Made by a program: the position numbers and the translations under genes
Shown here: piece by piece, positions 6,617 to 60,307 of the stretch
Layout of the letters: each line of letters begins with the position of its first letter
Position numbering within the stretch: the stretch's first letter is position 1
IMG/VR virus record: IMGVR_UViG_3300032265_003789
Location: 1-64,000 of that record
DNA from: a virus
DNA length: 64,000 bases
Direction: 5' to 3' (one strand)
The notes under the pieces: generated by a model
Databases searched by the model: none
The model's input: the letters and a program-made list of their open reading frames with translations, nothing else
Told to the model about the DNA's origin: nothing

Positions 6617-6621
6617 CGCTC

Positions 6622-10545: not shown

Positions 10546-10670
10546 CAAACACCCCCGAGGCTCAACCGAGCCTCTTTTTTTTTGCCCAAAAACTTTTTTT
10601 AAAAACCTATTGACTTTTCAGAGTATATACCCGACAATGAAGAAAGTTAAGAAATACAGGAGATTGAATC

Positions 10671-10970
10671 ATGACAACCGCTACTAAAACATATTTATCA
10701 GACAACCAAAAATTGGCAAATAAAGCTTTTATGCGCAATTGGAAAAAAACAGTGGGAGAGTTTTTGCCACTAATGGGGCTTAAAGGCACCACAGGTCGTT
10801 TTAAGCTAGTTTGCTTGAGTATTGATGAATATTACGTTCAATTAACCTTGAATGATTCGGGTAAGATTTGGAAAAGCAAAATATACAATAACCCAAGAGC
10901 TGCCGTTGACAAAGGCGTTACTCGGGCGATTCTGTTGCAAATGGTTGCTAGACGAAACGCAAATCCCTAA
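10671..10970 (+). CDS. Cassette ORF 4, hypothetical basic protein
   Basis: Own promoter and RBS; followed by the AGGACTC-GAAA-GAGTCCT-polyT terminator (about 10979-11001). Confidence 0.8.
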   Translation: MTTATKTYLSDNQKLANKAFMRNWKKTVGEFLPLMGLKGTTGRFKLVCLSIDEYYVQLTLNDSGKIWKSKIYNNPRAAVDKGVTRAILLQMVARRNANP

Positions 10971-14392: not shown

Positions 14393-14695
14393 GTGAACTA
14401 CGAATTCATTACCCTACTCCTTTCGATTCTAGGAGGTGGCTTTACTCTCAGTAATAGCTTATCCAAACAGATTGAACAGCAAAATATCCGAATTGAAAGG
14501 CTTTATGAAGTTTCGCAGCAAAACTGGAACGCTATTACGAAAATCACTAATTACCTAGAAGTGACTCAGGTTAAGCTTTCCGCGGTAGAAAAGGATATAT
14601 CTCAAATTGAAACTGACCTGCATTTTATTAAAGCCAATTCAAACGGGCATGAGCCTAGCGTGATTTACCCCAAAAACAATGATCCCTCAAGCTAA
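14393..14695 (+). CDS. Membrane-anchored coiled-coil protein (holin-like candidate)
   Basis: N-terminal TM helix then coiled coil; divergent from the endolysin. Confidence 0.4.
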   Translation: MNYEFITLLLSILGGGFTLSNSLSKQIEQQNIRIERLYEVSQQNWNAITKITNYLEVTQVKLSAVEKDISQIETDLHFIKANSNGHEPSVIYPKNNDPSS

Positions 14696-29945: not shown

Positions 29946-32822
29946 ATGACTCAAAGTTTACTTTGGCGTTTTTCCTACGGGCAAGGCAGTAGCTCTAGCG
30001 ATCCATATCCTCCACTAATTGGCGGTCAAGTTACTTTTACGACTAACAATATACTAATTAGTTCGGCAGTTGATCAGCTTGTTTTATCCGTAGTGCAAGG
30101 CTCTGCTAACTTGGGCCCGCATCCAGAGCATCGCTCAATTACCTACAACGATTTAAGCCAAGTTGTTAGTATTACCGTTCCCTACATAACCTCCGGTAAT
30201 TATCAATACAACTTTAACTACAACGCTGATAACCGGATTGAATCAATCCATTATCAAGACCCCACAATCTCTTCTGCTATTGCGCTTTGGTCTTTTACTT
30301 ACAGCTCAACAGGTAGAGTTCTCTCAATTCTCAATGAGGGTTCAAGCTACTATAGCTATACCCCTGGTACTTTTTACGATACTGACTCAAGCTACGTTCC
30401 TTCTTACCAGATACTTGCAGCCACAGGTACAGTTGAGGGGTATAGCGTAAATCTGCCTGCGACTTTCTGGGAAACGCTTGAAAATGGGCAGTCACAAATC
30501 CTAGGTAATATTCCCCAATCTGGCTTACCAAACTTTCCCTATTGGCAGGGCAACTCTTTTGAAAACTCCAACTTAAATCGGCTTTACCCTAATACGCCTC
30601 CAGTTTATTTCGCTGGCGGTACTACAGTAGCAGGGACAGTAATCCTATTAGATAAAGGAGACGGCAAACCGCATCCTGTGGGTTTGGGTTATCAAACAGG
30701 ATATCTGCCTACTGGAGAGCCAACTAAATATCTATATTTGCTATTTGGAGATTATGCCAACAACTACTCCTACAACGGGCAAAGTTGGGATGGCGTTGTT
30801 GTAAATAGAATCAACTTTACTGACAATTTCAATCTCACTTTACAGACCAATCAATATTTTAATCCTAGGATTTTCCCCCTGATAGAATCCACTGGCATTA
30901 ATACTACTATCAGCTTTTCTAATACTATTTTGATTAACAGCTCTGGCGCTGAACAAAGGCTGATCAAATGGCAAGATCCGCTAAGGTCTTTCAACCTCAC
31001 TAGAAAGATATTAAGCTTAGCTGAACTGCTTACAATACTGGAATTTTTCAAGACTAAATTAGGCTCTGACCTTGAATTTCTCTATCAAGATAGGAGCGAT
31101 TATATAGCCAGTAATGGACAAGGCATATTGTATCCTTTGCCCGACGGCAACAGGACTGAATTTCAATTGTGCAAGCTGTATGTCGCTGGAGATTGCGCTC
31201 ATTTTAGGGCGATCTCCAGACCTGAGACGGTGGTTTCTGTGCCAGGCTACAACGTAGCTGATTGTGTGATTGATTACAATACCGGAAAGATTGTCCTGCC
31301 TAGCGCTCCTGCCGCCTCAACTAACTATTTCGCGGTGGATTTCCGCTTCTATGTTCCAGTGATTTTTGATGGGGATGAACTGGACTATACGATTGCCGGC
31401 CCAGAGGTTTATCAAATCAATAAGCTAATACTAAAAGAGATTAAGGTAATTCCTTTTATTTACCCCAGAGATAGCTTGGTAGATAGCTCAAATTCTGGGC
31501 AAAATAAAGTAGTATTTCCCAATAATTTAAACTTCATTGCTAATAATCAAATTGCCACAAATTACGATACAGAAATTGTCACTCTCAGCAGCGGTTACAA
31601 TAAGCGCACTCCCAGAATCAGCCAGAGCTGGACAAAAACCACACTAGCTCAAAGGAGCACTTTTAGCCAATTACAATTAGAAACCCTGCTAGGATTCTGG
31701 CTTGCACATAAAGGCAATGGCGCGTACTTTTACTACAACAATTTTGGTGATTCCAATAATCAATATTTGGCTAGATTTTGGTCACAAGATTTGAATTATG
31801 TCCTGCAATCTACCAATAATATCTATCAAGTTGCTCCAGTGGAATTGCGCGTTTTCACCTTTGGAAATCCGATTAAAGATGCGCCAATTCAACAGCCAAC
31901 AGATATTCTCAGCACTCCACTGTTGACCCTAGCAAGGGTCTGTAATATCACTGTTCCCTTAATCGGAACAACTGAAGTACATGGCTTTACTACTTCAGAT
32001 CGTGATATCACAATTGATGGCGTGGTATACAAGGCCTCTACTGCTTTTGACCCCAGCGCTGTACAAAAGACTGTGGATATTTCGGTAGACAATCAAGAGA
32101 TTAAAACCATTATTCACAGCGAGATAACAGAAGCAGAGCTTGCCTCTGGCAAGTTTGATGAGGCGACTATCACTGTGGCAGTTGTGGACTACACTAACCC
32201 ACCGGTTCACTTGAGTGATTGCGTGATTGAACAAGAAGGATTTGTAGGAGAGATCACCTCCACAGATACCTATTTCAAGATGGAAAATTTAACCAAAGCT
32301 GCCAGCTTGCTTAGAAAAAACGTCTCAGTCAAAACGCAATTCTCATGCAGATATAATTTTTGTGATGTGCCGGCAAGACCCGATAGCCATTGCACTTTGA
32401 ATATTAATAATTTTCAATGGGACGCGCAAGTAATCCAAGGGGTAAGCGGTTTTAATAACAGGCGCCAATTTTTTATTCATTGCGATACAGCAATTACTAC
32501 TCACGTCCTATCCTATGGCTCAATTTACTTTTATAGCGGGGCAAATATTGGGTTAGAATATGGTATTTTTGATAACTATTATGATGTTGGTTTTATTGGT
32601 TCACAAACTCAGAGTGGGTTGTTAATTCTAGTAGTAAATAACGCGCTATTTTATGACCCGGCTGTAGGTGATACGATAAGGCTTAGAGGCGGTTGTAATA
32701 AGCGATTTGAAACTTGTAAAAACCTATACAATAACTATATTAATTTTGGCGGTGAACCTGCCCAAGGGCGCTTTATGCCCACCAATGATTTTTATAATTC
32801 ATCTACTGCTTCAATGGGGTAA
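29946..32822 (+). CDS. Tail-tip protein: DUF2460-like domains fused to DUF2163/BR0599-like hub
   Basis: SGAEQR..KW..P.R.F, DGNRTEFQL.K.Y, F.FYVPV.FD; GFTTSDRDI.IDG..Y; CRYNFCD..C; GCNKRFETC...YNN..NFGGEP. Confidence 0.85.
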   Translation: MTQSLLWRFSYGQGSSSSDPYPPLIGGQVTFTTNNILISSAVDQLVLSVVQGSANLGPHPEHRSITYNDLSQVVSITVPYITSGNYQYNFNYNADNRIESIHYQDPTISSAIALWSFTYSSTGRVLSILNEGSSYYSYTPGTFYDTDSSYVPSYQILAATGTVEGYSVNLPATFWETLENGQSQILGNIPQSGLPNFPYWQGNSFENSNLNRLYPNTPPVYFAGGTTVAGTVILLDKGDGKPHPVGLGYQTGYLPTGEPTKYLYLLFGDYANNYSYNGQSWDGVVVNRINFTDNFNLTLQTNQYFNPRIFPLIESTGINTTISFSNTILINSSGAEQRLIKWQDPLRSFNLTRKILSLAELLTILEFFKTKLGSDLEFLYQDRSDYIASNGQGILYPLPDGNRTEFQLCKLYVAGDCAHFRAISRPETVVSVPGYNVADCVIDYNTGKIVLPSAPAASTNYFAVDFRFYVPVIFDGDELDYTIAGPEVYQINKLILKEIKVIPFIYPRDSLVDSSNSGQNKVVFPNNLNFIANNQIATNYDTEIVTLSSGYNKRTPRISQSWTKTTLAQRSTFSQLQLETLLGFWLAHKGNGAYFYYNNFGDSNNQYLARFWSQDLNYVLQSTNNIYQVAPVELRVFTFGNPIKDAPIQQPTDILSTPLLTLARVCNITVPLIGTTEVHGFTTSDRDITIDGVVYKASTAFDPSAVQKTVDISVDNQEIKTIIHSEITEAELASGKFDEATITVAVVDYTNPPVHLSDCVIEQEGFVGEITSTDTYFKMENLTKAASLLRKNVSVKTQFSCRYNFCDVPARPDSHCTLNINNFQWDAQVIQGVSGFNNRRQFFIHCDTAITTHVLSYGSIYFYSGANIGLEYGIFDNYYDVGFIGSQTQSGLLILVVNNALFYDPAVGDTIRLRGGCNKRFETCKNLYNNYINFGGEPAQGRFMPTNDFYNSSTASMG

Positions 32823-32824
32823 CT

Positions 32825-33235
32825 ATGGCTTTATCTATTAGTGAAATAGCCAAACAGTGGCAAGGTACACCATGGAGACATAATCAATCCGTCAAGGGCG
32901 TTGGTTGCGATTGTGTGGGCTTTTTATTGGGAGTAGGCAAAGAATACGGAGTGGTTTCTCAAGATTATCAATTAGGTAATTATCACAGAATTCCTAGGTT
33001 TAATCAGATTGCTCAAACGCTTGATTCTTTGGCTCAATTTGTGCCAGTAGAGCAATACCAACCCGAAGATATTTTGCTATTTAAAATGGGTAATATTGCC
33101 GGGCACGTAGGCTTAGCGCTTGAGAATGAAATGCTTATCCATGCGGATTTAGAATGCGGTGTCCAGATAATACCAAATACTTTTTGGGTTCCTAAAATAT
33201 ACAAAATTTATAGAATATGTCAACAGCAATTGTAA
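32825..33235 (+). CDS. NlpC/P60 family tail peptidase
   Basis: WQGTPWRH..S.KGVGCDCVG, HVGL, LIHA. Confidence 0.9.
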   Translation: MALSISEIAKQWQGTPWRHNQSVKGVGCDCVGFLLGVGKEYGVVSQDYQLGNYHRIPRFNQIAQTLDSLAQFVPVEQYQPEDILLFKMGNIAGHVGLALENEMLIHADLECGVQIIPNTFWVPKIYKIYRICQQQL

Positions 33236-36033
33236 TCCCAGTTGTTACTTCTTTGGTAGGTAATTTAATAGCTAATTTACTAACTCCAATTCAAAATAAA
33301 AACAAGCTCGACCCATTGGCTTTGAGGGCTACCGCTGAATATGGGGCGCCAATTTCCCAAGCATATGGACACGTCCGAATTGACGGACTTTCTATGTTTT
33401 GGGGGCAAAATTTAATCCAAACAATAAATGGCGGTGGCAAGGGCTTTGGCGCTAGGACAAGGGATTACAAATACTATATGACCTGCGCTTATATGATCGG
33501 TGGAGAAATTAGCGATCTCAGGTGCGTTTGGTGTAATGGCGTACAAATCTACAGCAAAGAGACTGTTCAGAAAAAATCAGCTAATTTTGTCCGACATAGT
33601 GAGGTTTTTCTAGGGACTCTAAATCAGCCCATTTCCTCTGTAATTTCCTCTGTTGAGGGTAACGCGATCCCAGCTTTTAGAGGTAGATCCTACATTACTT
33701 TTAACCGTTATCCGCTTTCGGATTTTAATGGTTCTGGCTTTCCCAAGGTGGATGTACTTGTCTACGGCAAGGGAGGAGTCAATCCCACAATTAGGTCAAT
33801 AATCCAAGATATCTTTACTAGTGCGGGATTTGATACAAACAAGCTAGATTTATCAGATGTGCCAGCGGGTCAGCAGATTGAGGGATTGCTTTTTCAGCGC
33901 ACAGGCGAAACCTACGCTGATTATTTAAACGAGATTTGTAGATTATTTTTCTTGACTCACAGGGAGGAAAATGGCGTTTTAAAACTGCTCCAGAAAAACA
34001 GACCATCTGTATCGCTCAACCTAGCTTTAAATAATCTGGGCGCTCGCAATACCCCCGGCAAATCTCCAGACCTGTTCCAAGAGAAAATTCAACACAAGCG
34101 CGAGATGCCCTCCGAGGTGCAAATCAGCTTTAGAAACCTTGGGGATAACTATAGCCAGTGGGTTGTCACAGCAAGCGATCCTCTGGCTAAATCTAAAAAT
34201 CCACTCTCGATACAGACTAGGGCTTGGGCAAATCCCACCTTTATGGAGGGACTGGCAAATCGGATTATTGGCGAGGTAGCCTCACAGCGCAATACTTTTA
34301 GCGGGATAAGCCTGCTGCCCTGCTGGTATACCAAATTGCATTTAGGCGATGTCATCGAGCTCAACATAGGGCAAAGATCAGTGCAATTACAGCTTACTAA
34401 AAAGCTACTGAGCGCTGATTATCTTTGCCAGATTGAAGGCAATCAATATCTAAGTCCTATTGAGTGTGTTACTAAAAAAATCCATGTGTGGATCGCGGTT
34501 AGAAATATTAGTTGGATTTTTGCACAATCGGGATCAAATGGCGTGGCGTTTCCTCCAGGCGGTTTGGTTTTTTACACGCGAACAGTTGAGCCATTTGTGG
34601 GGTATGTTGATAATTTGCGAATAATTAATCAAGCAGTTCAACGAGGCGACGGGGTTGCTCGTCTTGTAATTGCTCCCGGTGGGGTTGGGTTTTCAGAAAA
34701 TCCGTTGGCTTTCCCTGGAGTACCAGATATACCAGAATTTCAAAATTCTGGCCCTGTGCCTATATATGGTCTTGACGGGTTTATAGGCGATCCCACAATC
34801 TATATTGATTATCCAGATGCTGCGATGCCAACTTCTTTAGGCGGTAGCTGGGGCTACAGTTCTCCAGCTTTTGATTGGGATCGTGGGGTGATTGTTGCCA
34901 CATCACAAATAAGCGATACCGTTGCATCGGGAAGTAATGCTTCTGACACAACGGTTTATGATTTCGGAAACGACAATAACTTTTACGCCATCTCACAAGT
35001 CGTTTCCAACTACACTCCCCAAGTTGCCAAGCCATATTCTAGAGTCAGCTCTTACACTGAGGGCATTTTGCATGTATTGGATATCCCTGTATTGAAAAAT
35101 TCAGATAATCCTCTAGGGATATATTTTGCGGTTGAGAGCGTTTCCAATTTCTCCACAGGCACAGTATTTGTCTCTACCGACAATGGGCTAACCTTCAATG
35201 GTTCAAGCACGGTCAAGGGCGCAAGCGCAGTCGGTATAGTCTACAGCTCCCCAATGCAAGCTGGCCCCACTGGAATAATTGACACTAATACAAAAATTGA
35301 TATTTACGCTCAAAATTCTATATTTGAATCAGTCACAGATGCTGCGTTTCTAGCAGGGGAAAATTTAATTTTAATTGGGCAAGAGATTATAGCCTTTAGA
35401 GATGTGCTGGTTAAACCAAATAATGTTTATCAAATCTCCCATTTAATCAGAGGGGCAAAAGGCACAGAAAGATTAACAGGAACTCACGTTTCAGGAGAGA
35501 GCGCCATACTTTTAAATAACGTTACGCAATTGGCAACCAAACAGGGAGATATTGGTAAAAACGTAGAGTTTAAAATTGTGCCTTATGACCAGACTGAACC
35601 AGATATTACAGATATTGTGACAGTCAACTACAAGGCTCAATCTGCCACGCCATACAACGTTACAGGCGTCAAGCAATCCCTAGCAGACAATGGCGATGTG
35701 AGTCTGTCTTGGTATAGGAGAACATATCAAAATGGAGAGCTATTGGATTATGTTGATATTGGGTTTGCTTCTGGGGAAATCAATACTTTCAAGATTGAAA
35801 TTTGGCAAGCTTTTAACAATAATCCAGTTTTAGTTAACACTCATTTTGCCAGTGGCAGTATTTTTTTATACACACAAGATCTGCAAAATATTGACGATAA
35901 TCTGGCTAATAATCTCTATGGTGGCAATGGCGGTAGTAAGTGGTTTAGGATATCGCAGCAAAGCTCAATAGTAGGCTACGGCCCATATACGCAAGTGCCA
36001 ATTATGAATATTTATTCAGGAACAATTTACTAA
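33217..36033 (+). CDS. Tail tip attachment / host-specificity protein (GTA g15/J-like)
   Basis: YGAPISQAYG.VR, PAFRGRSY..F..YPL.DF, EIIAF...YQISHLIRGAKGTE, LSWYRR. Confidence 0.85.
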   Translation: MSTAIVIPVVTSLVGNLIANLLTPIQNKNKLDPLALRATAEYGAPISQAYGHVRIDGLSMFWGQNLIQTINGGGKGFGARTRDYKYYMTCAYMIGGEISDLRCVWCNGVQIYSKETVQKKSANFVRHSEVFLGTLNQPISSVISSVEGNAIPAFRGRSYITFNRYPLSDFNGSGFPKVDVLVYGKGGVNPTIRSIIQDIFTSAGFDTNKLDLSDVPAGQQIEGLLFQRTGETYADYLNEICRLFFLTHREENGVLKLLQKNRPSVSLNLALNNLGARNTPGKSPDLFQEKIQHKREMPSEVQISFRNLGDNYSQWVVTASDPLAKSKNPLSIQTRAWANPTFMEGLANRIIGEVASQRNTFSGISLLPCWYTKLHLGDVIELNIGQRSVQLQLTKKLLSADYLCQIEGNQYLSPIECVTKKIHVWIAVRNISWIFAQSGSNGVAFPPGGLVFYTRTVEPFVGYVDNLRIINQAVQRGDGVARLVIAPGGVGFSENPLAFPGVPDIPEFQNSGPVPIYGLDGFIGDPTIYIDYPDAAMPTSLGGSWGYSSPAFDWDRGVIVATSQISDTVASGSNASDTTVYDFGNDNNFYAISQVVSNYTPQVAKPYSRVSSYTEGILHVLDIPVLKNSDNPLGIYFAVESVSNFSTGTVFVSTDNGLTFNGSSTVKGASAVGIVYSSPMQAGPTGIIDTNTKIDIYAQNSIFESVTDAAFLAGENLILIGQEIIAFRDVLVKPNNVYQISHLIRGAKGTERLTGTHVSGESAILLNNVTQLATKQGDIGKNVEFKIVPYDQTEPDITDIVTVNYKAQSATPYNVTGVKQSLADNGDVSLSWYRRTYQNGELLDYVDIGFASGEINTFKIEIWQAFNNNPVLVNTHFASGSIFLYTQDLQNIDDNLANNLYGGNGGSKWFRISQQSSIVGYGPYTQVPIMNIYSGTIY

Positions 36034-36356
36034 TGCCCAGCTCCCACTTAGAGGATTATTTTGAGCGCAGTTGGCAAGAGCTCTATCCAGAGATTGCCCT
36101 AGAGCGCGAGGTCAAGTCAATCCCCGGCAGAAGATTTAGACTTGATTTTGCCCACACCGCATCCAAAGTAGGGATAGAGATTGAAGGGCAAATCTGGCAC
36201 AAATCGAGGCACACTAGCGGCTCTGGCTTGCTCAAATCCTACGAGAAACACAACCTCAATTTAGTTCACGGCTGGAGAGTTTTTCAATTGGCAGAGGATA
36301 TGATCTGCCCAGATTGGCTCAATTTGATTGCTGATACAATTAAAGGCGCAGATTGA
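36033..36356 (+). CDS. Vsr/DUF559-like endonuclease
   Basis: RRFRLDFA....KVGIEIEG.IW...RH, EKHN....GWRVF. Confidence 0.8.
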   Translation: MPSSHLEDYFERSWQELYPEIALEREVKSIPGRRFRLDFAHTASKVGIEIEGQIWHKSRHTSGSGLLKSYEKHNLNLVHGWRVFQLAEDMICPDWLNLIADTIKGAD

Positions 36357-36725
36357 AACCCTTACCTAGTAATGCTTACAAATTTAGTTCCCGAAAAAGA
36401 TAAACAATCCAATTCTGTGCTAAGCCATTATCAATCAGATTTAGCAAAGGCTCTGGTTGAATTGCGACAAAAAGCAATCAAGCAAGATCTGCAGCTGTGG
36501 ACAATTGAGCAGATTAACCAAGAGCTGAGCTTACGCCGTGGCACAAAATAAGCAAAAAATACTGCTTAAAAACAAAGCAGGCGAGTTAATCGAAATCGAC
36601 ATCCAACTGGCTAAATTGGCAATGGCTCAAGCCCTAAAAACACTGAACGAATCAACCAAAACCCTTGCCTAGTAATGCTTACAAATTTAGTTACCGAAAG
36701 AAATAAACAATCCGATTCTGTGCTA
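36356..36725 (+). repeat. 67-bp direct repeat (36356-36422 / 36659-36725; 62/67 identical)
   Basis: AAACCCTT(A/G)CCTAGTAATGCTTACAAATTTAGTT...TTCTGTGCTA; gives the 59-aa ORF and Cas6 near-identical N-termini. Confidence 0.9.
36372..36551 (+). CDS. 59-aa hypothetical protein sharing its N-terminus with Cas6
   Basis: MLTNLVPEKDKQSNSVL...ELSLRRGTK. A second small ORF (36538-36672, 44 aa, GTG start) follows. Confidence 0.55.
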   Translation: MLTNLVPEKDKQSNSVLSHYQSDLAKALVELRQKAIKQDLQLWTIEQINQELSLRRGTK

Positions 36726-37373
36726 GAGCAATTTCTAGAATTAGAATTTAAAGTATCAGGCTCATCCTTGCCAGCAGACAACGGATTTTCTCTATATAGT
36801 GCAATCAAGGCAATTGCTGGCGATTTACCAGAGGATATGCTGCTTTGCTCAATTCCCGGCAAATCAGATCCTCCGGGACTAATTAAGATTAACGATGGCT
36901 CAAGGCTCAGGCTAAGGGCTAAAGGGAGCGACACTGCCTATTACCAACAGGCTTTAGCAGGTAAAATTCTAAATATCAGAAATCACCAAATCAAATTAAT
37001 TAATATCAGCTTGAAGGAGATAGAGCCAAAAAGCAAGTTGCAAGCTCGAATTGTGACTTTTAAATTGCTAGGGATCTGGGACTACGGCAATCCTCCGGTT
37101 GATAGATTTTGGCACATCTGCAATAAGGCGCTAGCGACAATTGGCGTTACCGCAAGATTGGATTTTACTAGGGTTAGTTCGCTCAAGATTCACGATAGGT
37201 CCGTCTTGGAATTTGGCGTGATTGCCTCTCGATTATCCGAGCAAGACTCAATAACCTTGCAGCAAAAGGGTTTAGGGGGAAGAAAACACTTTGGATCGGG
37301 ATGGTTTTTTAAATTTTCTCAAATTAGGTATAAATACCTATTGACCCCCAACGAAAAATCGCATAAGCTATAG
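36675..37373 (+). CDS. cas6: CRISPR endoribonuclease Cas6, MYXAN/Cmx6-like
   Basis: F.VSGSSLPADNGFSLYSAI, SRLRLR, LQARIVT.K, LSEQDSITLQQKGLGGRKHFGSGWF glycine-rich loop. Confidence 0.9.
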   Translation: MLTNLVTERNKQSDSVLEQFLELEFKVSGSSLPADNGFSLYSAIKAIAGDLPEDMLLCSIPGKSDPPGLIKINDGSRLRLRAKGSDTAYYQQALAGKILNIRNHQIKLINISLKEIEPKSKLQARIVTFKLLGIWDYGNPPVDRFWHICNKALATIGVTARLDFTRVSSLKIHDRSVLEFGVIASRLSEQDSITLQQKGLGGRKHFGSGWFFKFSQIRYKYLLTPNEKSHKL

Positions 37374-37400
37374 AAAGTTAAGAAATTAATCAATTAGGAG
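37325..37400 (+). promoter_or_regulatory. Palindrome-containing promoter overlapping the cas6 3' end
   Basis: TAGGTATAAATACCTA, TTGACC-17-TAAGCT, GAAAGTTAAGAAA, AGGAG. Confidence 0.8.
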
Positions 37401-37407
37401 ATACAAA

Positions 37408-37815
37408 ATGACACTTGCTACTACTTGCCTCAACGATCCCATCGAGACCAAATCTTTTGAAGGAGTTCAATTGAGAGGATCCTCTCAATTGCATCGCTTA
37501 GCCCAAGAAATTTGCAGCTTGTTTCAAGAAGAGGAAATGCAGGAAGAAGGATTAGATCCTTCGCACAAATCTCTGTACTATATCAAATCCGTTCCTCATG
37601 GAGAATCAACTACAATCATGTTTTGCGACGTTCGCACGAAAGCTGGTGTCACAGTGCGGTTAAAGGATCTGGCTACAGAAACAATACAGCACTTTGCATT
37701 TAGCGGAGGCAAAATATGCCTAGAAGTTGACACATTGCAAGCTCATGGTTTTGGAATTGTTGAAGCTAGTCTTGTCGGTCGGGAAAAAATGTCGCTTGCT
37801 GCTCTGACTTGCTAA
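37408..37815 (+). CDS. Hypothetical protein (self-contained cassette within the cas locus)
   Basis: Own promoter and RBS; GGGGCT..AGCCCC hairpin follows. Confidence 0.75.
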   Translation: MTLATTCLNDPIETKSFEGVQLRGSSQLHRLAQEICSLFQEEEMQEEGLDPSHKSLYYIKSVPHGESTTIMFCDVRTKAGVTVRLKDLATETIQHFAFSGGKICLEVDTLQAHGFGIVEASLVGREKMSLAALTC

Positions 37816-37853
37816 AAATATTAGGGGCTTGCAATAGCCCCAACAAAAAAAAG

Positions 37854-38504
37854 TTAGTCCATCTCTGCTTGCTTATTACAAGCGACGTGTGAAATCAATT
37901 CAAAAACTCTAGTCCCTCTAATTGGTGCTAGGACTTGTTCTGCTTTCCAGAATTCAGGATTGCTGTGAAGCTTGAGCAGATTTTGTGATTTGTAGTTTCC
38001 GCTGAGTATTTCTGTCTTCGTAAGCTCCAAGCCCATTAATAATTCAAATTGCTCTAGATTTTCTGTAAATTTAGCTCGATCAATTTCCAGTAAATCCAAT
38101 TCGAAAAGCACAGGGAATCTATCTTTTTCTTGAGCTTCTTGAGCTAGAAATAGGATATGCTTTTGCCCACTTTCAGCTATAGCAATTGTAAAAGGTGGCT
38201 CAGGTGGATTTATAAGCCACTGCCTGATTAGCGATCTATTGGGCAAAGTATGCACGCGATCACCTTCAAAAATTGGATAGGATTGCTGGTTGGAAAGCAG
38301 CCAGCTAAATGTGCGAGAAAATAAAAGCCCTTCCTTTTTTGTATTGGGATTGTAATACTTGACGCGCATGGGAATCACCCAAGCGCACCTATCGCACCAA
38401 AGCTTAGATTCTGGTACTTTGGCTCTAGAGTGAGCTGTAAAGGTATCTTTTAAACTTAGTGATTTAGTGGCTCCTTGAGCTCCACACAAATAACAGAAAT
38501 TCAT
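37854..38504 (-). CDS. csf1: Type IV CRISPR large subunit Csf1 (Cas8-like)
   Basis: CYLCG...CDRC zinc motif, LINPPEPPF.IAIAESGQKH; start at MNFCYL. Confidence 0.85.
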   Translation of the reverse strand: MNFCYLCGAQGATKSLSLKDTFTAHSRAKVPESKLWCDRCAWVIPMRVKYYNPNTKKEGLLFSRTFSWLLSNQQSYPIFEGDRVHTLPNRSLIRQWLINPPEPPFTIAIAESGQKHILFLAQEAQEKDRFPVLFELDLLEIDRAKFTENLEQFELLMGLELTKTEILSGNYKSQNLLKLHSNPEFWKAEQVLAPIRGTRVFELISHVACNKQAEMD

Positions 38505-38555
38505 ATTTTTAGTAATTGGTATATTGATATAAATCAATCAAACCATACTAGTAAT

Positions 38556-39071
38556 ATGCTTGGATTTGCTACAGACGATAGGATTACTTCACTAGCTGCT
38601 GCTTTAAGCTATTGGGTTTTTAGGTGCCGAGATACCAGTTCAGCAGCAAACGGGCTAAAAACCTGGGAGTACATGCAGTCTTCTATACAAAACGCTGCCA
38701 CACCTTCAAGAAGCCTTAGTGACTATTTAGTGAATCTTTCGCTCAAGCTTTCAGTCCCTACGCTCAAGCCCAATATCTGGCGCCAGATAGTTCAACCTAA
38801 TCAGGTTGTCCTAAGAGCTGCTATTTCAGAAGATGGCAGCTTGGGTGATTTGCAACAATTCAACAAAGATCAAGCTTTAGCCTATCAAGATTGGGAGCAA
38901 TTGATTCACCAATGGCGCATTGAGTACGGAATTACTGAAAGGCACGTTCTGAGGGTTTGCTTAAATAGACCTCAACTAGTAACTCTATACGTGAGGCTCA
39001 AGCACGAAGAAGAAAAGCTTAATTGGCAAAACAATACACAAGAAAATAAAGGAGACACTATCGATGTTTAG
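38556..39071 (+). CDS. cas11: Type IV-B small subunit (Cas11-like)
   Basis: Helical protein (W.Y.QSSIQNAA..SRSL.DYL..L..KL) immediately upstream of csf2, as in subtype IV-B. Confidence 0.6.
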   Translation: MLGFATDDRITSLAAALSYWVFRCRDTSSAANGLKTWEYMQSSIQNAATPSRSLSDYLVNLSLKLSVPTLKPNIWRQIVQPNQVVLRAAISEDGSLGDLQQFNKDQALAYQDWEQLIHQWRIEYGITERHVLRVCLNRPQLVTLYVRLKHEEEKLNWQNNTQENKGDTIDV

Positions 39072-40221
39072 TACTTACAATCCAGACAAACGCCATCGCA
39101 TTACTTTTCACCTTGTATTAGAAACTCTAGCTCCTTTGAGCCATATTGGGGAGACCGTGGGCAATCAAGCCAATTTGCGGACAGTAACCCTGACTGATAT
39201 TGAAGGTGAACCTACTCCTATATTCTGCCTATCCGGGAATTCATTGAGAAATAGAATATTGCGCAGAGTAGGGATTGACGATATGCTCTCTCGCCTAAAA
39301 ATCACAGTAAATCCACTTTTGCATCATGCACTTTTTTGTGGGGGCGCTCTTGATGGAGGCACTTCTAATAATCTTGAATTAGATAAAAAAATTAGGCAAT
39401 TCTTACCACCAATTTCTTTATTGGGCACAGCTAAACCTAAAGGGGTTTTTGGTGCTACTGATGCCCAAATGATTGGCGGTAGGCTCAATGTGGGTGATGC
39501 CGCGCTGGTCTGCTACGAAAGCGCATTAGCAATTTTTAATACTTTTAAGCCGGCTTTACCAGTTGAAGTAATTGAAGCTTTAACTCAAATTGAAAACGCC
39601 AAAAGGACTTTAGAAGCAGAACGAGTGCAGGCTTTTTTATCTGGCAAAGAATCTACTAATACAGGTTTAGATTACAAGGAAACCTTGAAGTATTGGCTGC
39701 CTTTTTTAGAGCAAAAGCTCAGACCCTACCCACACTGGCTTACCTATATACAAAAAACCAGACGCGATTCTCACCATGATCCCAATTTGGTAAAGCACCT
39801 TTTACCAGCAGCCGGCAAAGTTCAACAAACGCTTTTTGATTCTGGAGAAACTAAAAAGGAAAAACCCAAGAGTAATCAGATGATCATGGGTTCATGGTTA
39901 ATACAACAAGGCGCAACCTTGTATTCTCGGTGGGACGGATATATCACAGATGTCGAGGAAGGTTTTATTGCTCGGGCTATATTGGCTTGGGCAGATTCTC
40001 CTTACGTCGGTGGGCAAGCTAATACAGGCTGTGGTAAGGTTGCAGCTAAAATCTATTATTCCAGTGAGGGGGAAATAGGGGACTGGATGCTGGTACAAGA
40101 AGGCAAACATACCTTGACTGAGCGCTCAGCCAAACAACAGGCAAGATACGATCAATACCTTCACGAATACGAACAATATTTAGAACAAAATTCAAACGAA
40201 ATTGCAGGTATACTAGGATGA
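39064..40221 (+). CDS. csf2: Type IV backbone Csf2 (Cas7-like)
   Basis: TLAPLSH, P...SGNSLRNRILR, LFCGGAL, PPISLLG, MI.GRLNVG, VGGQ...GCG. Confidence 0.9.
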   Translation: MFSTYNPDKRHRITFHLVLETLAPLSHIGETVGNQANLRTVTLTDIEGEPTPIFCLSGNSLRNRILRRVGIDDMLSRLKITVNPLLHHALFCGGALDGGTSNNLELDKKIRQFLPPISLLGTAKPKGVFGATDAQMIGGRLNVGDAALVCYESALAIFNTFKPALPVEVIEALTQIENAKRTLEAERVQAFLSGKESTNTGLDYKETLKYWLPFLEQKLRPYPHWLTYIQKTRRDSHHDPNLVKHLLPAAGKVQQTLFDSGETKKEKPKSNQMIMGSWLIQQGATLYSRWDGYITDVEEGFIARAILAWADSPYVGGQANTGCGKVAAKIYYSSEGEIGDWMLVQEGKHTLTERSAKQQARYDQYLHEYEQYLEQNSNEIAGILG

Positions 40222-40898
40222 CTCCTTTACAAATTACAGCGCACCTTTCACGACCTTTAGCCACTACTGATAGCCTTTCTCCAGCGATTGAAGGATTGAT
40301 TGAATATAAGCTCAGAGAAGAACTAGGGCTACTAGATCCCAATCCACAAAAGCTTGAAGAAATAACACAGATAGATTTACCCCTACTAAAAAACAAATTG
40401 GGATTTTATCACTGTAGCTCTCCACACTATCTTTACAGCAAAGAAGAGCAAGTCAATTTTCGTAAGCGCTGGGATTATCAGGATAGGCACTTAGACTGGG
40501 GCAAAAAGAAAGCCAAGGTTGATACAAGTCAAGGGCAGTTCAAGTCTTACGATATGCCACTTTTTTTGCGTACGATTAGTAGAATTGACTGGTTCGTGGT
40601 AGGAGAGCAAGAGACAATTTTAAGATTACTCAAAAACGTAACTCACCTAGGCAAAAAACGCAGTCAAGGATATGGGTTGGTTACTAGCTGGACTGCTCAA
40701 GAAATTCCAGGGGATTGGTCAATAATTGGCCCAGACAACAGGCTTAGACGACCGGTTCCAGTAGAGCTATTTACTCCTAAGTTGCCTGAGCACAAACAAC
40801 TAGCAGCCTGGAAATTACCAAGCTGGCACCACGAATCTACTAGCCTTTGCTGGGTACCAAGCGTGAATATTAAGCAGGAGAATTGTCTTGCCTCTTAG
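40218..40898 (+). CDS. csf3: Type IV Csf3 (Cas5-like)
   Basis: PLQITAHL..P, VDT..G.FKSY..P, WFVVG...I..LL..VTHLGKKRSQGYG.V..W, RPVP. Confidence 0.88.
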   Translation: MTPLQITAHLSRPLATTDSLSPAIEGLIEYKLREELGLLDPNPQKLEEITQIDLPLLKNKLGFYHCSSPHYLYSKEEQVNFRKRWDYQDRHLDWGKKKAKVDTSQGQFKSYDMPLFLRTISRIDWFVVGEQETILRLLKNVTHLGKKRSQGYGLVTSWTAQEIPGDWSIIGPDNRLRRPVPVELFTPKLPEHKQLAAWKLPSWHHESTSLCWVPSVNIKQENCLAS

Positions 40899-41625
40899 CA
40901 AAGGCTCTGGCTTACAAATTCCTTGGCTCAAGCCCAAAATCAACAAGGCTCTAGATTTAATTAAGCAGTGGCTAGAGCTTTGTGATCATCAGGTTTATTG
41001 CGCGGTTTCGGGCGGTAAGGACAGCTTGGTTTTAAGCCATTTAGTGCAACAAGTATATCCAGATTGCCCAAACCTTTGGATTAATCAAGGCCCTTTGGCT
41101 GAATGGGATGATTGTATTGAATTGTTGTCAACTTTCAATAATTTGATTGAATTGTGTCCGAGAAGGTCTTTATTAAAGTTGTATTGTGATTACGGGCTTA
41201 ATTTTGATGGCACAATGCACACAAAATTAGACAAAATCATAAATCAAATTTTAATTTATGATCCACTTGATGAGTACATTGAGCAACATCAAATAAAAGG
41301 TTCTGCCGTAGGGATTAGATCTCAAGAATCAAAAGCAAGACTTTTAAATCTTGCCAGAAGAGGACTATTGTATCAAATGAAAGACAAATCTTGGAAGTGC
41401 TGCGCAATCGGAAAATGGACAACTCAAGATATTTGGAACTATATTGATCACCATAAATTGATCTATCCTGCAATTTATGATTTAGACAGGTATACAGTTA
41501 GAAACGGGCCGCCTAACGGAACTACCGGCGCCAATAGGGGGCGAATAACTTTTCTTAAACGACACTACCCTGAGCTCTATCATCAATTTATTCAAGCTTT
41601 TCCCGAAGTAAAAGACCACTGCTAA
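40888..41625 (+). CDS. cysH: CysH-like (PAPS reductase family) accessory protein of type IV-B
   Basis: AVSGGKDSLVL PP-loop, GIRSQESKAR, W...DIWNYI; directly after csf3. Confidence 0.85.
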   Translation: MPLSKGSGLQIPWLKPKINKALDLIKQWLELCDHQVYCAVSGGKDSLVLSHLVQQVYPDCPNLWINQGPLAEWDDCIELLSTFNNLIELCPRRSLLKLYCDYGLNFDGTMHTKLDKIINQILIYDPLDEYIEQHQIKGSAVGIRSQESKARLLNLARRGLLYQMKDKSWKCCAIGKWTTQDIWNYIDHHKLIYPAIYDLDRYTVRNGPPNGTTGANRGRITFLKRHYPELYHQFIQAFPEVKDHC

Positions 41626-41640
41626 AATATTTTCCCAAAT

Positions 41641-41711
41641 TAAGTATAAATACTTATTGACCCCTAATAGGAAATGGATTAAGCTATAAAAGTTAAGAAA
41701 TTAATTAGGAG
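41641..41711 (+). promoter_or_regulatory. Palindrome-containing promoter
   Basis: TAAGTATAAATACTTA, TTGACC-17-TAAGCT, AAAGTTAAGAAA, AGGAG. Confidence 0.8.
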
Positions 41712-41718
41712 ATACGAG

Positions 41719-41946
41719 ATGTCAATGGAATTATTTTTACGTGACGGCAAGTTGTATTACAGAACCGCTAAAGGGGACGTATTTGTCCTCAACGGACTAC
41801 GTAGCGAGATCATCAGAAACCCTTTCAATTATTTGGTTCACAGCGCAGTCTGTGACGCCACGGATACTTTCAACCTTATTGCCTCAAAAGAGGTAATCGC
41901 TGATCTAGTAGAATCTCTAGAAGCAGCCAGTGAAGTCGGATTTTAG
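41719..41946 (+). CDS. Small hypothetical protein
   Basis: RBS and promoter upstream. Confidence 0.75.
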   Translation: MSMELFLRDGKLYYRTAKGDVFVLNGLRSEIIRNPFNYLVHSAVCDATDTFNLIASKEVIADLVESLEAASEVGF

Positions 41947-48479: not shown

Positions 48480-49595
48480 ATGGAATTTATAACCACTAAA
48501 GCACTACTGTATCAGGCATTGAGCAAAGCTGCTGCCTTTGTTCCAGCCAATGCCAATCACCCAATTCTCAAAACAGTCCTAGTTGAAGCGAAGGACAAAC
48601 AAGTCAGCTTTACAGGGTTTGACCTGCAATCGGGATGCGTGGCACAATCTCAAGCCACTGTGGTTAAACCGGGCTCTGTAGCGATAAATAAGCAAATATT
48701 GAGCGATTTGATTAGCAGGCTATCTGGGGATATCAAATTCCATGTGGATGAGAATTTTCTAACGACAATCACAGCTTCTACCGGCAGCTATCAAATTGCT
48801 TCCGGCAATTACAAAGATTATATAAGCCTGCCTGTTATCACGCCAGAAATCAAATTTGATATAGATCCCAAGTTGCTCAAGCAATTTATAAAATTTACTG
48901 GTTCTTTCTATACTAATGAGTCAAGTAAGCAGATTCTCACTGGTGTTGATTTTAAATATTTACCTGAGCAGCAAAGCCTTGTAGCAGCCGCTACTGATAG
49001 TCACAAGTTGGCGGTGCAAGCAAGCAGTTGTGATTCTGGGGAAAAAGCTTTTGAGGTAGTGATACCAGGAGCTAGCTTGCAAAAAATCAACCGATTACTA
49101 GAAGGTTCGGTGGTTTCTCTGGAGATAGATTCGGCATGGCTGCGCCTAACCCTATCTTCTGGAGATATTGTGATTACTAGAAAACTTGAGGGAACATATC
49201 CTAAATATGAGTCCCTAGTGCCTAAAAAATTTGAATTAGAATTTACAATCAATCGCAAGGAGCTATTGAGCTCACTAGAGCGCGTGGCATTATTTTCTAA
49301 TAAAGATATAGTTCAATTTAGTATTAGCCACAAGGAATTAGAGCTCAGCGCAAAAAATGAAGTTAACTCCAGTCAAGAATTGATGTCAATTGAACCAGCT
49401 AGGGGTAATGGGCTTACTTCTTTGATTATTGCCTTCAATATTAAATATTTGATTGAGGCTATCCAATCTGTCAGCTCTGATTCAATACGGATTAAGTTGA
49501 ATCAGCCTACCAATCCAGTGATTATCACTCCAGAGCAAGAGGAAGAAAATACCAATTCCTTAATCCTAATCATGCCAGTACAAATTGTAAAATAA
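48480..49595 (+). CDS. dnaN: DNA polymerase III beta clamp
   Basis: HPILKTVL, QILTGV, AATDSHKLA, RKLEGTYPKY, IAFNIKYL, LIMPVQ. Confidence 0.95.
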   Translation: MEFITTKALLYQALSKAAAFVPANANHPILKTVLVEAKDKQVSFTGFDLQSGCVAQSQATVVKPGSVAINKQILSDLISRLSGDIKFHVDENFLTTITASTGSYQIASGNYKDYISLPVITPEIKFDIDPKLLKQFIKFTGSFYTNESSKQILTGVDFKYLPEQQSLVAAATDSHKLAVQASSCDSGEKAFEVVIPGASLQKINRLLEGSVVSLEIDSAWLRLTLSSGDIVITRKLEGTYPKYESLVPKKFELEFTINRKELLSSLERVALFSNKDIVQFSISHKELELSAKNEVNSSQELMSIEPARGNGLTSLIIAFNIKYLIEAIQSVSSDSIRIKLNQPTNPVIITPEQEEENTNSLILIMPVQIVK

Positions 49596-51859: not shown

Positions 51860-52333
51860 GAACCTCCTTATCGGGCTAATATATATATTATCGGATATAT
51901 CCCTTAAGAGATCAATAGGTATTTATACCTAATTTTGGGTATTTTTTTATAAACTTTCTTATATATTTCTAGATATTTTGAGATTTTACTTATATGTGTC
52001 GGTAATCGTATTGATAAACGTACGGATACCCGAAAAATATATAAGATATTTTGTTGATTTTGCCAGAAATTATCAGGAATTTGTATATATACTGTACGGG
52101 TATTTGTACGGGTTATCGTACCGGTAATCGTACCGACAAGGGAATATATAAGATATTCTGTCGATAGCAGCCGGATTTATCAGGTTTCCGTATGGATATT
52201 GTATTGATAATCGTATCGAGTGTCGTACCGGGTATCGTATTGAAATAGGATATATAAGATATTCTGTCGCCAGCAGCCGAATTCATCAGGTTTTTGTATA
52301 TTTCGCTTTATAGGCAAATATACTTAGTGTATT
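51860..52333 (-). repeat. 474-bp inverted repeat, copy B
   Basis: Reverse complement of 6143-6616. Confidence 0.95.
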
Positions 52334-52461
52334 GATATCTGTACAATCTACTGTATGGATAATTGATCTGTAGTGCGCTTGTGTATAAGCACAAAAGAAC
52401 CCACCGTTTGCAGGTACCTATTGCGGCATAGCTGGGTGAGTTGTGTTGTGTATAGTATAGC

Positions 52462-57760: not shown

Positions 57761-58382
57761 TGGGGTTTTTTGCTGTTTAAGCGTATTGATAAAATTAAAC
57801 AGAATCAATCAAATTTGTGTAAATAAAATTCATAAAATGCAAGTCACCGTCTCCATGAAAACAAATGAATGGATTAAAATGCAAAAATCCGATAGGATTT
57901 GGTCTTGGGTAATTGGTAGCCAACCACGTTTGTACACATTAAATAAAATTAATTACCCAAGACAAGAATTAGAGCCGATAGGGTTTGGCGTAATACAAAT
58001 TGGAGATTTGCTTTATACGGCATTCAAATATGAAGTTACTCCAGAAATATTAAATCTTTATGCAATTCTAAAAAGCGTTGTCAACACACTAAAAGGAGAT
58101 GTCAAATTCTATACCACGTTACCAGAAGACCACAAAACATCCTTGGTGGGAAACAGAACATTTTATTGGTGGGCAGTCAATCCAATGGGTGAGGTTTTAG
58201 ATGTGTGTTTAGTTTGTGTTTACGATACTGAAGATAGAATCCGCTGGTGCAATCAAGTAATTCAAAACTTTGTGCATAATTAAAATTTATTGCTAACAAA
58301 ATATACTTACAACCCCAGTTTTCTGGGGTTTTTTGCTGTTTAAGCGTATTGATAAAATTAAACAGAATCAATCAAATTTGTG
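57761..58382 (+). repeat. Perfect 59-bp direct repeat (57761-57819 / 58324-58382)
   Basis: TGGGGTTTTTTGCTGTTTAAGCGTATTGATAAAATTAAACAGAATCAATCAAATTTGTG. Confidence 0.95.
57786..58283 (+). CDS. Single-domain paralog of 56825-57721 (true start probably 57837 or later)
   Basis: WSWVIGSQPRLYTL..INYP vs WNWEIGKKPRLFSL..LTYP; WWAVNP.G.VL. Confidence 0.7.
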   Translation: MIKLNRINQICVNKIHKMQVTVSMKTNEWIKMQKSDRIWSWVIGSQPRLYTLNKINYPRQELEPIGFGVIQIGDLLYTAFKYEVTPEILNLYAILKSVVNTLKGDVKFYTTLPEDHKTSLVGNRTFYWWAVNPMGEVLDVCLVCVYDTEDRIRWCNQVIQNFVHN

Positions 58383-58389
58383 GAGCGCT

Positions 58390-58887
58390 ATGGCACTTTC
58401 AATAGATTATTTGCGCTTGCCGCATTGCCCAGAAAATCAACTAATCAAGCACAATCCTACTGATGTCGGTTTTGATATTTACCTAACTCATGACACTTGG
58501 GTCTATCCATACAGCCAAATACCCTACGACAATGAGCGGGACGAGTATCGCGTATCATTGCAGCCTACTGGAGTGATATTAGCACCTTTAACTACTGATT
58601 ACTGGTTTGGGCTTTACCCTAGGAGCTCCACAATAAAAAAGGGAGTTGCGCTAGCTAATACAATAGGCATTATTGATCCCACTTATACTGGAGAGTTACT
58701 GCTGGCTTTATATAGTTTGCACAAGCCAATTCTGCTCAAAGCTGAAAAAGCTATAGCTCAACTAGTAATACATCACAACATCACTACAGAATTTAACCTA
58801 ATTGAAAATGACCCCAGATTTAACAAACGTGGCGGATTTGGATCAACAGATAGTAAATCAAACTTACCGACCGCTATACCAGGCTAA
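58390..58887 (+). CDS. dut: dUTPase (trimeric)
   Basis: DVGFDI, PTG, YPRSS, NTIGIIDPTYTGE, IAQL, RGGFGST. Confidence 0.92.
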   Translation: MALSIDYLRLPHCPENQLIKHNPTDVGFDIYLTHDTWVYPYSQIPYDNERDEYRVSLQPTGVILAPLTTDYWFGLYPRSSTIKKGVALANTIGIIDPTYTGELLLALYSLHKPILLKAEKAIAQLVIHHNITTEFNLIENDPRFNKRGGFGSTDSKSNLPTAIPG

Positions 58888-60307
58888 TCAGGTAATTTGC
58901 GGACATGGCTCTATTGTGATAGTAACTGGATGGACGCCAGCGGCAATAATAGCCAAGCAACTTGACCCGGACTATTACGCTGCTATTGGTAATTTGTATA
59001 GCCCTACTCGCGGTCTATCTCCACTATTGCGCAATATCTTAGCCAATCCGTATATCAACTGCATCACAGGCTTGAAATGCACCAAAGAAGACGATAATGC
59101 TGGCGGTGTTCAAGCTTTGAATGATTTTTTTGTTAAGGGTTTTGAGGAAGGATTTAGCGATCTTGGCAAGCCAGTATGGGTAGTAAATTCACAAATTCGG
59201 GCTTATATTGATATTGAAATCCCCGGAGAAGCTTTAGAAGATATCAGGCGAAATGTCCGTTGGGTACTTAATTACACTGTGGCAGATTGTGTTAGATTTG
59301 TATTTCTTAAAATATTTCAGGCTAAATCTCACTGGGCTTATCCTAGAGCGTATCCCGAGCCTGAGTTTGTTCCTAGTAAAGCTTTGCCAGCTTCTCCCTT
59401 TGCTCACAGGGTTGAGGCAAAAACCATAGCCAAAGCTTGGGTGAAAATTCTACACAGAATAACAACCTCTGGCATAATCAGGCAGAGTAGTTATGGGCTC
59501 TGGCAAGAGCTAATAGATTTGGTTGTAGTGATTACAGATGAGCCAGATGTTTTGGAGTTTACTAATTACTTGCCAATCACTCGAATGTTTTTCAAAAACT
59601 ACTTAGCTGAATTTTCAGACCCTGCCAATCTTGGGGATGTTAGCTATACCTACGGGCAAAGGATCCGCTCACATTTTGGCGTGGATCAGGTTGAGCAGGT
59701 GATTGAAAAATTAAACGCTGACGCCAAAAGTGGAGGAGATTTCAATTGCTCTAATGCTGTGATTTCCCTGTGGGATCCAAGCGTAGATGGCAAGCAAACC
59801 AAGAATACGCCTTGCTTAAATCACCTTTGGTTTAGAGTTGTCCAAGGCAGGTTAACTCTTATTGCCACATTTAGGAGCAATGATATGTACAGCGCTTGGG
59901 TAGCCAATACAATGGCGCTTAGATGCCTTCAGATTGAGGTAGCTAAAAGGCTTGATATATTGGCAGGTGAGCTAATCACAATTAGCCAGAGCGCACATAT
60001 TTATCAAGATGATTGGCACGATGCCCAAGCGATTGTAAAGCGGCAATACAGGAAATTATGCAAACCCAATTTTGCAGATCCCGTAGGCAGTTTTATTATT
60101 GAGCCTAATGTGCGGGAAATTGTTGTCCATCAAACCACTGCCGGCAATGGCGAACTTGTCAATACCTACCGAGGTAAATCACCACTGACGCTTGTTCGGG
60201 AGATAGCAGCAGATAACCCCACAATTGCTCCAGAACACTTAGGGTATCTAGGCATCGAGCTAGAAAAAGCTTATAGATTAGGCTACAAGTACAAACAGGA
60301 TAAATAA
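58808..60307 (+). CDS. thyA: Thymidylate synthase, cyanobacterial multidomain type (start uncertain)
   Basis: YTYGQRIR, PCLNH, FRSNDM..AW.AN, SQSAHIY; extra N-terminal (TGWTP..AIGNLYS) and C-terminal (DP.G.F, HLGYLG.EL) domains. Confidence 0.85.
   Translation: MTPDLTNVADLDQQIVNQTYRPLYQANQVICGHGSIVIVTGWTPAAIIAKQLDPDYYAAIGNLYSPTRGLSPLLRNILANPYINCITGLKCTKEDDNAGGVQALNDFFVKGFEEGFSDLGKPVWVVNSQIRAYIDIEIPGEALEDIRRNVRWVLNYTVADCVRFVFLKIFQAKSHWAYPRAYPEPEFVPSKALPASPFAHRVEAKTIAKAWVKILHRITTSGIIRQSSYGLWQELIDLVVVITDEPDVLEFTNYLPITRMFFKNYLAEFSDPANLGDVSYTYGQRIRSHFGVDQVEQVIEKLNADAKSGGDFNCSNAVISLWDPSVDGKQTKNTPCLNHLWFRVVQGRLTLIATFRSNDMYSAWVANTMALRCLQIEVAKRLDILAGELITISQSAHIYQDDWHDAQAIVKRQYRKLCKPNFADPVGSFIIEPNVREIVVHQTTAGNGELVNTYRGKSPLTLVREIAADNPTIAPEHLGYLGIELEKAYRLGYKYKQDK

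Follow-up and report, generated by a model that had tools for sequence, protein, structure and literature searches.

A type IV-B CRISPR effector module with a type I-MYXAN Cas6 in an uncultured tailed phage

The IMG/VR record IMGVR_UViG_3300032265_003789 (79,733 bp, rated 96% complete) is that of an uncultured tailed phage of ~80 kb, and its bases 1-64000 form the stretch of DNA analysed here, hereafter the window. The interval 36675-41625 of the window holds seven open reading frames (ORFs), each intact (Table 1), among which are a cas6 gene and genes of a CRISPR system of subtype IV-B. An earlier interpretation made from the letters alone (the sequence-only reading) had placed cas6, csf1, cas11, csf2, csf3 and a cysH-like gene in this interval, and all six were borne out when the ORFs were searched with hidden Markov models (HMMs) from Pfam, NCBIfam/TIGRFAM and the PADLOC type IV set, and Cas11 was compared by fold. 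Its pairing of a IV-B core with a type I-MYXAN Cas6 on a phage also stands (PADLOC, TIGR02807). Its gene anatomy was right for these six genes but overlooked the inversion of csf1, the ORF orf135 and the direct repeats. The locus is a genuine, intact type IV-B effector module (Csf1, Cas11, Csf2, Csf3 and a CysH-like protein) plus Cas6.

Table 1. Features of the module and its immediate surroundings, in window coordinates.
Feature	Position	Strand	Support or remark
Direct repeat copy 1 (67 nt; ribosome-binding region and first ~17 codons, start of orf59)	36356-36422	+	
orf59, N-terminus a duplicate of the Cas6 N-terminal extension	36372-36551	+	no family match
Direct repeat copy 2, overlaps cas6 start	36659-36725	+	93% identical to copy 1
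cas6 (Cas6/Cmx6, type I-MYXAN family)	36675-37373	+	PF09559, TIGR02807, PADLOC
orf135, ORFan, variable slot between cas6 and csf1	37408-37815	+	
GC-rich hairpin and T-run between convergent orf135 and csf1, csf1 terminator	37824-37841	-	
csf1 (type IV Cas8-like large subunit)	37854-38504	-	TIGR03114 2.7e-11; Csf1_0_IV 6e-28
Divergent csf1/cas11 intergenic region, 51 nt, presumed promoters	38505-38555		
cas11 (type IV small subunit)	38556-39071	+	Cas11_2_IV 1e-13; fold match 7jhy_h
csf2 (type IV Cas7 backbone subunit)	39064-40221	+	Csf2_0_IV 2e-38
csf3 (type IV Cas5)	40218-40898	+	Csf3_0_IV 3e-45
cysH-like PP-loop enzyme (CasCysH type)	40888-41625	+	PF01507 3e-14 (PAPS-reductase fold)
Copy of 37313-37413 (cas6 3' end and downstream ribosome-binding region), rearrangement scar	41629-41724	+	

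The PADLOC models cover Csf1, Cas11, Csf2, Csf3 and Cas6 nearly full-length, and the TIGRFAM models for Csf1, Csf2 and Csf3 matched the window proteins only at scores below their curated cutoffs. There is no Cas10-like HD subunit: the large subunit is Csf1, with a CxxC...CxxC zinc-finger motif at its N-terminus. Sequence profiles of Cas11 and Csf1 found no match among Protein Data Bank (PDB) sequences. An AlphaFold model of Cas11, built with 14 family members as input (predicted local distance difference test score 81), gave no match in Foldseek; a wider structural search then paired it with the IV-B Cas11 chain 7jhy_h (Z 8.5, root-mean-square deviation 3.1 Å over 117 residues), the runner-up reaching Z 4.7. 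The Csf2 family profile matched solved Cas7 proteins of subtypes IV-C (Cas7c, 4e-7), IV-B (Csf2, 7jhy_e, 3e-5) and IV-A (Csf2, 2e-4). The CysH-like protein carries the PP-loop motif SGGKDS, which does not vary within its subfamily, and a C-terminal Cys is no conserved feature of the family; this agrees with the published description of CasCysH, a PP-loop enzyme that has lost the conserved catalytic Cys (PMC8175902). Ratios of nonsynonymous to synonymous substitution (dN/dS) against the nearest relative were 0.03-0.09 for csf1, csf2 and csf3, and 0.41, at very low divergence, for cas11.

Two features of these proteins vary among related sequences, for which we use handles beginning with L or G. 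A C-terminus of the sliding-clamp-binding consensus (QLSLF, QLLLF or QLSLW) ends Csf1 in L045, L050, L029, L052 and L042; a clamp-binding motif was looked for at the C-terminus of the window Csf1 and not found, yet the phage carries a sliding clamp of its own (48480-49595). The CysH-like proteins come in two forms, one with SGGKDS and an insert of ~30 residues, the other with SWGKDS and no insert. The window cysH-like gene is 51% identical to its counterparts L002:11825-12550 and L003:7720-8445, whereas the flanking csf1, cas11, csf2 and csf3 are 98-99% identical, and we therefore attribute the difference to an allele swap through recombination.

Cas6 is assigned to its family by PF09559 (E 1e-39), by TIGR02807 cas6_cmx6 (106.2 bits against a cutoff of 98.85) and by PADLOC (4e-42), and among solved proteins the closest is 8fcj_B (profile E 3e-41), the Cas6 chain in the Cascade of a type I-B CRISPR-associated transposon (CAST) from a cyanobacterium. 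The C-terminal G-rich loop GLGGRKHFGSGWF is intact, and the pattern GLGG..G.G is conserved in the alignment. From the architecture of Cas6 proteins, the His of the N-terminal 'ADH' motif is a candidate catalytic residue; it is present in 18 of 18 host Cas6 proteins, and the window Cas6 has Asn in its place. We considered reading this Asn as lost activity and dropped that reading because 8fcj_B has the same Asn. Identity to cellular Cas6 proteins is 36-43%, with a maximum of 43%, and dN/dS against L003 is 0.11, indicating purifying selection. The N-terminal extension of the protein arose from local duplication.

The sequence-only reading reported neither an array nor cas1 or cas2, and the same holds for the whole 79,733-bp record, in which Tandem Repeats Finder, repeat finding and k-mer diagonals revealed no CRISPR-type array, and searches that were positive in control genomes detected no Cas1, Cas2, Cas12/TnpB TNB domain, DinG-type helicase domain (Helicase_C_2) or UvrD/RecD-type helicase domain (UvrD_C_2). 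An Rfam search gave no match. When the conserved 3' half of I-MYXAN repeats was sought by fuzzy matching, no such unit turned up in the record or in the related sequences searched, matches in L020 and L054 being rejected as a coding gene junction. Array repeats of relatives gave chance matches alone (≤15 nt) when compared with the record, and none of 88 spacer-like intervals, drawn from eight I-MYXAN arrays of hosts, matched the phage sequences examined over its full length. Non-coding space at the locus is almost absent, and one non-coding stretch alone is conserved with relatives, a GC-rich inverted repeat that we read as a terminator.

One repeat structure in the window was considered as an array and rejected. 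The 50-nt repeats at 6177-6439 and 52037-52299 lie within a region of ~480 nt that occurs twice, inverted and 45 kb apart (6150-6620 on the minus strand, 51860-52340 on the plus strand), and are separated by 12-mers. Each copy contains three of the 50-nt repeats at a period of 106-107 nt, with clusters of 12-mers of the GTACGG or ATCGTA type between them, and stands upstream of a small ORF that reads outward; the ribosome-binding region of this ORF is the same for both copies. The duplication looks like an iteron or operator region, at an origin or early promoter.

Tail genes lie directly upstream of the module (29946-36033), and elsewhere the record encodes TerL, a sliding clamp, thymidylate synthase, ribonucleotide reductase, PhoH, a primase-polymerase and an integrase. 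The closest cultured relatives of TerL belong to Nodularia siphophages (42% identity) and Cylindrospermopsis phages (34%), and some Csf2 homologs are binned in metagenome-assembled genomes (MAGs) of Pseudanabaena, Dolichospermum and Spirulinaceae. On these grounds the host is most likely a cyanobacterium, and probably a filamentous one. Window 1-5334 is taken up by a giant ORF, at least 1777 aa long and without a Pfam match, that runs off the start of the contig, and the contig end at 79.0-79.7 kb is AT-rich and non-coding; the missing ~4% therefore probably contains the 5' end of this ORF.

The module belongs to a cyanophage family known only from metagenomes. We counted at least 262 Csf2 homologs in metagenome data and 54 viral loci in IMG/VR, with no match to Csf2 among GenBank phages; of 401 cyanobacterial genomes sampled, a single one had a match, in a MAG and on a contig that is phage-like. 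Gene maps of related loci, built by iterative HMM searches, have a universal core of cas11, csf2, csf3 and cysH, to which csf1 is usually adjacent. Of the 14 long records, retrieved in full or almost in full, every one has csf1, csf2 and cysH, and 13 have cas11, the exception being G001, whose contig begins at csf2. In G003 and G004, from one cas6-positive clade, csf1 is intact and unlinked, tens of kb from the other IV-B genes (in G003, csf1 at 9998-10732 and csf2 at 58221-59432).

Against this constant core, cas6 is optional, being found at 22 of 58 loci and in 17 of 43 whole records (about 40%). The sequence-only reading had made the co-occurrence of cas6 and csf genes in relatives a point to check, and the linkage held for the most part: where cas6 is carried, it lies inside or beside the csf genes at 21 of 22 loci. 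It did not hold in G044, the one relative with an unlinked cas6 (~54 kb from the csf genes), and many relatives have no cas6 at all. The linked genes take four arrangements, with cas6 upstream, as in the window phage, in the csf2-csf3 gap (L004), in the csf3-cysH gap (L032-L036), or after cysH. In G019 and G045, a cas6 vestige of 33 residues persists between cysH and csf1.

A profile search among 401 cyanobacterial genomes found homologs of Cas6 in 45. The context was read for eight of these, and in every one the host cas6 stands beside an array of 36-37-nt repeats with cas-sized ORFs between. One host operon typed by HMM comprises cas6, cas3, cas8a1, cas7, cas5, cas4/cas1 and cas2, all of type I-MYXAN, and a hairpin of 8 bp lies close to the 3' end of the host repeat. 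When 17 phage and 18 cellular Cas6 proteins were placed in a maximum-likelihood tree, a single phage clade was rejected (approximately unbiased (AU) test, p = 1e-4), the phage lineages being interleaved with cyanobacterial I-MYXAN Cas6 proteins, which backs the earlier suggestion that the phage gene was recruited from type I-MYXAN. The window Cas6 groups with those of L003 and L004 inside a clade with full support to which 10 cellular sequences also belong, while in L005 and L006, which share a Csf2-monophyletic group with the window phage and L002-L004, Cas6 falls in a different cellular clade (AU p = 4e-4, for a grouping picked after the first tree had been seen). Set against the Csf2 clade, the Cas6 tree and AU tests indicate repeated exchange of Cas6 between host and phage, and its replacement in one of the phage lineages, a pattern that would be expected if a match to the host's repeat type matters.

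Arrays do occur in some relatives, in three of eight cas6-positive and three of five cas6-negative long records, with no association between arrays and cas6. Two cas6-positive genomes, G003 (complete, with terminal repeats) and G004 (95% complete), were searched for an array and none was found. The question posed by the sequence-only reading, whether a canonical array lies elsewhere on the phage, thus has a two-part answer: there is none in the record, while some relatives carry arrays beside class-2-like nucleases. By eye, the array repeats of relatives are unlike I-MYXAN repeats. We considered these arrays as substrates of Cas6 and rejected them, since in the cases examined they abut Cas12-, TnpB- or IscB-like genes, and they do not covary with cas6. 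Together, the missing association, the arrayless G003 and G004 and the non-I-MYXAN repeats mean that phage arrays do not explain Cas6.

The arrays have several neighbours. A Cas12-like protein of 622-627 aa (Cas12f1-like TNB and OrfB_IS605 domains) abuts arrays in L039, L040, L044 and L049; in L039 (16339-19280), L044 (14188-19080) and L049 (17722-21070), these are long, have 37-nt repeats, lie directly downstream of the Cas12-like gene and are a few kb from the IV-B genes. The complete, cas6-positive G002 has a five-repeat array beside a gene for a TnpB-like protein of 467 aa (L059:17193-19184). In the provirus-flagged G001, an IscB-like protein (RRXRR and HNH domains, 457 aa) at 42.1-45.4 kb (L074:2100-5420) has CRISPR-like arrays on both sides, with 36-nt repeats and some unusually short spacers, and the unit adjoins TerL. 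Besides IV-B genes and cas6, G005 (57% GC) encodes a type I-E-like Cas7 (Cas_CT1975, 5e-69; L068:2917-4170) and has two short arrays with hairpin repeats (L068:6066-6430 and 14560-15010), one of them ~2 kb from Cas7.

What, then, might a IV-B module on a phage do with a host-type Cas6? The conserved IV-B core, the repeated uptake of host-type Cas6, the complete genomes without an array and the well-defined host repeat make host I-MYXAN CRISPR RNA (crRNA) a concrete candidate. The reading we favour, to which we give a probability of roughly 0.35, is that host I-MYXAN pre-crRNA is captured by Cas6 on behalf of a Csf complex that has no nuclease. The phage Cas6 would bind, and probably cleave, the repeat hairpin of the host pre-crRNA and would remain on the 3' hairpin in the manner of Cas6 in class 1 complexes, where it could nucleate a Csf2/Cas11 filament on host-derived crRNAs, with Csf3 and Csf1 as caps. 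Guides would thereby be drained from the host's Cascade-Cas3, a crRNA capture that would amount to a form of anti-CRISPR; alternatively or in addition, the phage may turn the host's spacer memory on competing elements. The nucleic acid bound by the complex would be the substrate of the CysH-like enzyme. Extended to the family, the proposal becomes more tentative: Cas6-bearing phage IV-B complexes may possibly be capture machines for host I-MYXAN crRNA that blunt immunity or redirect its spacers on rivals. A precedent for the recruitment step is the mention that IV-A variants took Cas6e or Cas6f from co-resident type I systems (PMC7038947).

Several observations weigh against the capture of host crRNA. 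Many relatives, among them the complete genomes G017, G020, G038 and G043, have the IV-B core and no cas6, and the function of the core therefore does not require Cas6. The solved IV-B complex held heterogeneous RNA and not the crRNAs of a co-expressed type I-E system (PMC7937560, PMC8175902). The exchange of His for Asn in the window Cas6 would count on the same side, although the Asn of 8fcj_B makes it ambiguous. The window Cas6 also has a long branch in the tree; this and its identity of at most 43% make it a conjecture that the protein recognises the repeats of hosts living today, and long-branch effects could have influenced where it falls in the tree.

Another reading keeps Cas6 as an RNA-processing partner of the Csf complex but supplies the RNA from the phage: a non-array transcript part or solitary hairpin, processed by Cas6, would serve as a dedicated guide or scaffold. 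It can draw on the formation of IV-B complexes on non-CRISPR RNA (PMC7937560), on the existence of a virus IV-B locus with a two-repeat mini-array (PMC10541130) and on the distance of the phage Cas6 from cellular ones, through which its specificity may have shifted. We think it unlikely, as such an RNA has little room to hide: no unit resembling the 3' half of an I-MYXAN repeat was found in the 79.7-kb record or the related sequences searched, there is almost no non-coding space, the sole conserved non-coding stretch reads as a terminator, and Rfam gave no match.

It is also conceivable, with still lower odds, that Cas6 is separate cargo, for example a stand-alone binder or cleaver of pre-crRNA, that shares a variable hot spot with the IV-B genes but does not act together with them. 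The ~60% of related records with an intact core and no cas6, the ~54 kb that part the genes in G044, the varying position of cas6 and the unrelated cargo in the adjacent slot (orf135, or other ORFs in L003) would all suit such an arrangement. They have to be set against the embedding of cas6 among csf genes, with overlapping or abutting frames and in several independent arrangements, the vestige retained between cysH and csf1 in G019 and G045, and the swap, within one Csf2 clade, of cas6 for another Cas6 lineage in place of its outright loss.

Arrays frequently break assemblies, and an ordinary array served by Cas6 might sit in the unassembled ~4% of the genome; the record is linear, begins inside a truncated gene and is 96% complete, and G001, G002 and G005 have arrays elsewhere in their genomes. 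We judge this very improbable, given that cas6-positive G003 and G004 have no array, that arrays and cas6 are not associated, that the arrays of relatives abut Cas12-, TnpB- or IscB-like genes and have repeats unlike I-MYXAN (by eye), and that the record of the window phage has no Cas12 or TnpB. That the module is a decaying remnant without present function, as the missing array, nuclease and helicase and the internal rearrangement scars might suggest, can be all but dismissed in view of seven intact ORFs, strong purifying selection and a core kept across 14 long records.

To our knowledge, neither an RNA partner nor a function has been established for CRISPR-Cas subtype IV-B. If the capture of host crRNA by Cas6 is true, it would give the subtype its first defined RNA source and biological role; even if the idea fails, the family supplies matched Cas6-positive and Cas6-negative IV-B loci.

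The surroundings of the six named genes record a history of rearrangement. Direct repeats, in two pairs, border parts of the module: the 67-nt pair at the starts of orf59 and cas6, and a pair of ~100 nt at 37313-37413 and directly past cysH. Both are marks of internal rearrangement. Since cas6 follows cysH in several relatives, cysH-cas6 was likely the ancestral order, from which cas6 later shifted to its place at the head of the module. The product of orf59 has 83% amino acid identity in L002/L003. The ORFan orf135 had no family match in searches that included Pfam, NCBIfam and PADLOC, a protein atlas search was uninformative, and just three homologs (87-94% identity) were found among 5.8 billion proteins; in L003, other ORFs occupy its slot. 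No consensus promoter was called in the 51 nt between csf1 and cas11. Between the tail J-like gene and the module lies orf107 (36033-36356, PHROG 503), which is kept beside the tail gene in L002, L003 (96%) and L004 (64%).

Among known systems, the locus has the features of subtype IV-B (Csf1, Csf2 and Csf3, Cas11, a CysH-like protein, no DinG or RecD, no array or adaptation genes) save for the absence of Cas6, and because Cas6 is present we class it as a IV-B variant. A search of a literature library found no paper on a cyanophage IV-B system with Cas6, yet the sequence-only reading overstated its case in calling the system undescribed: Pinilla-Redondo et al. 2020 (PMC7038947) had already listed 12 instances of IV-B loci that have a Cas6, as rare exceptions, and these share the pairing of core and Cas6 seen here. 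The best-characterised comparison is the IV-B system of the Mycobacterium sp. JS623 plasmid (PDB 7JHY; PMC7937560, PMC8175902), which has the five-gene core, the Cas11 fold and the PP-loop CysH in common with the phage module, and like it is borne by a mobile element and has no array, adaptation module, helicase or nuclease. The phage locus differs in its Cas6, its inverted csf1, its distant sequences and its carrier, a cyanophage rather than an actinobacterial plasmid. Its Cas6 is of the same family as those of cyanobacterial I-MYXAN (I-B) systems and of the I-B CAST (8FCJ chain B), with the G-rich loop common to both; unlike I-MYXAN cas6, the phage gene does not lie beside cas3, cas8a1, cas7, cas5 or an array. 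Subtype IV-A (Csf1-3, Cas6/Csf5, DinG and an array) is alike in combining a type IV backbone with a recruited Cas6 of its own, whereas the phage module has Cas11 and a CysH-like gene and neither DinG nor an array. The IV-B system of Fuxiviridae (Bathyarchaeia virus, PMC10541130) is likewise virus-encoded, and a role in counter-defence or conflict between mobile elements has been proposed for it; it has a two-repeat mini-array and the paper's text does not mention Cas6, while the phage module has Cas6 and no array. What is new here, beside these systems, is the family-wide picture of the module, the non-association of Cas6 with arrays, the repeated exchange of Cas6 with host I-MYXAN systems and the corrected anatomy of the locus.

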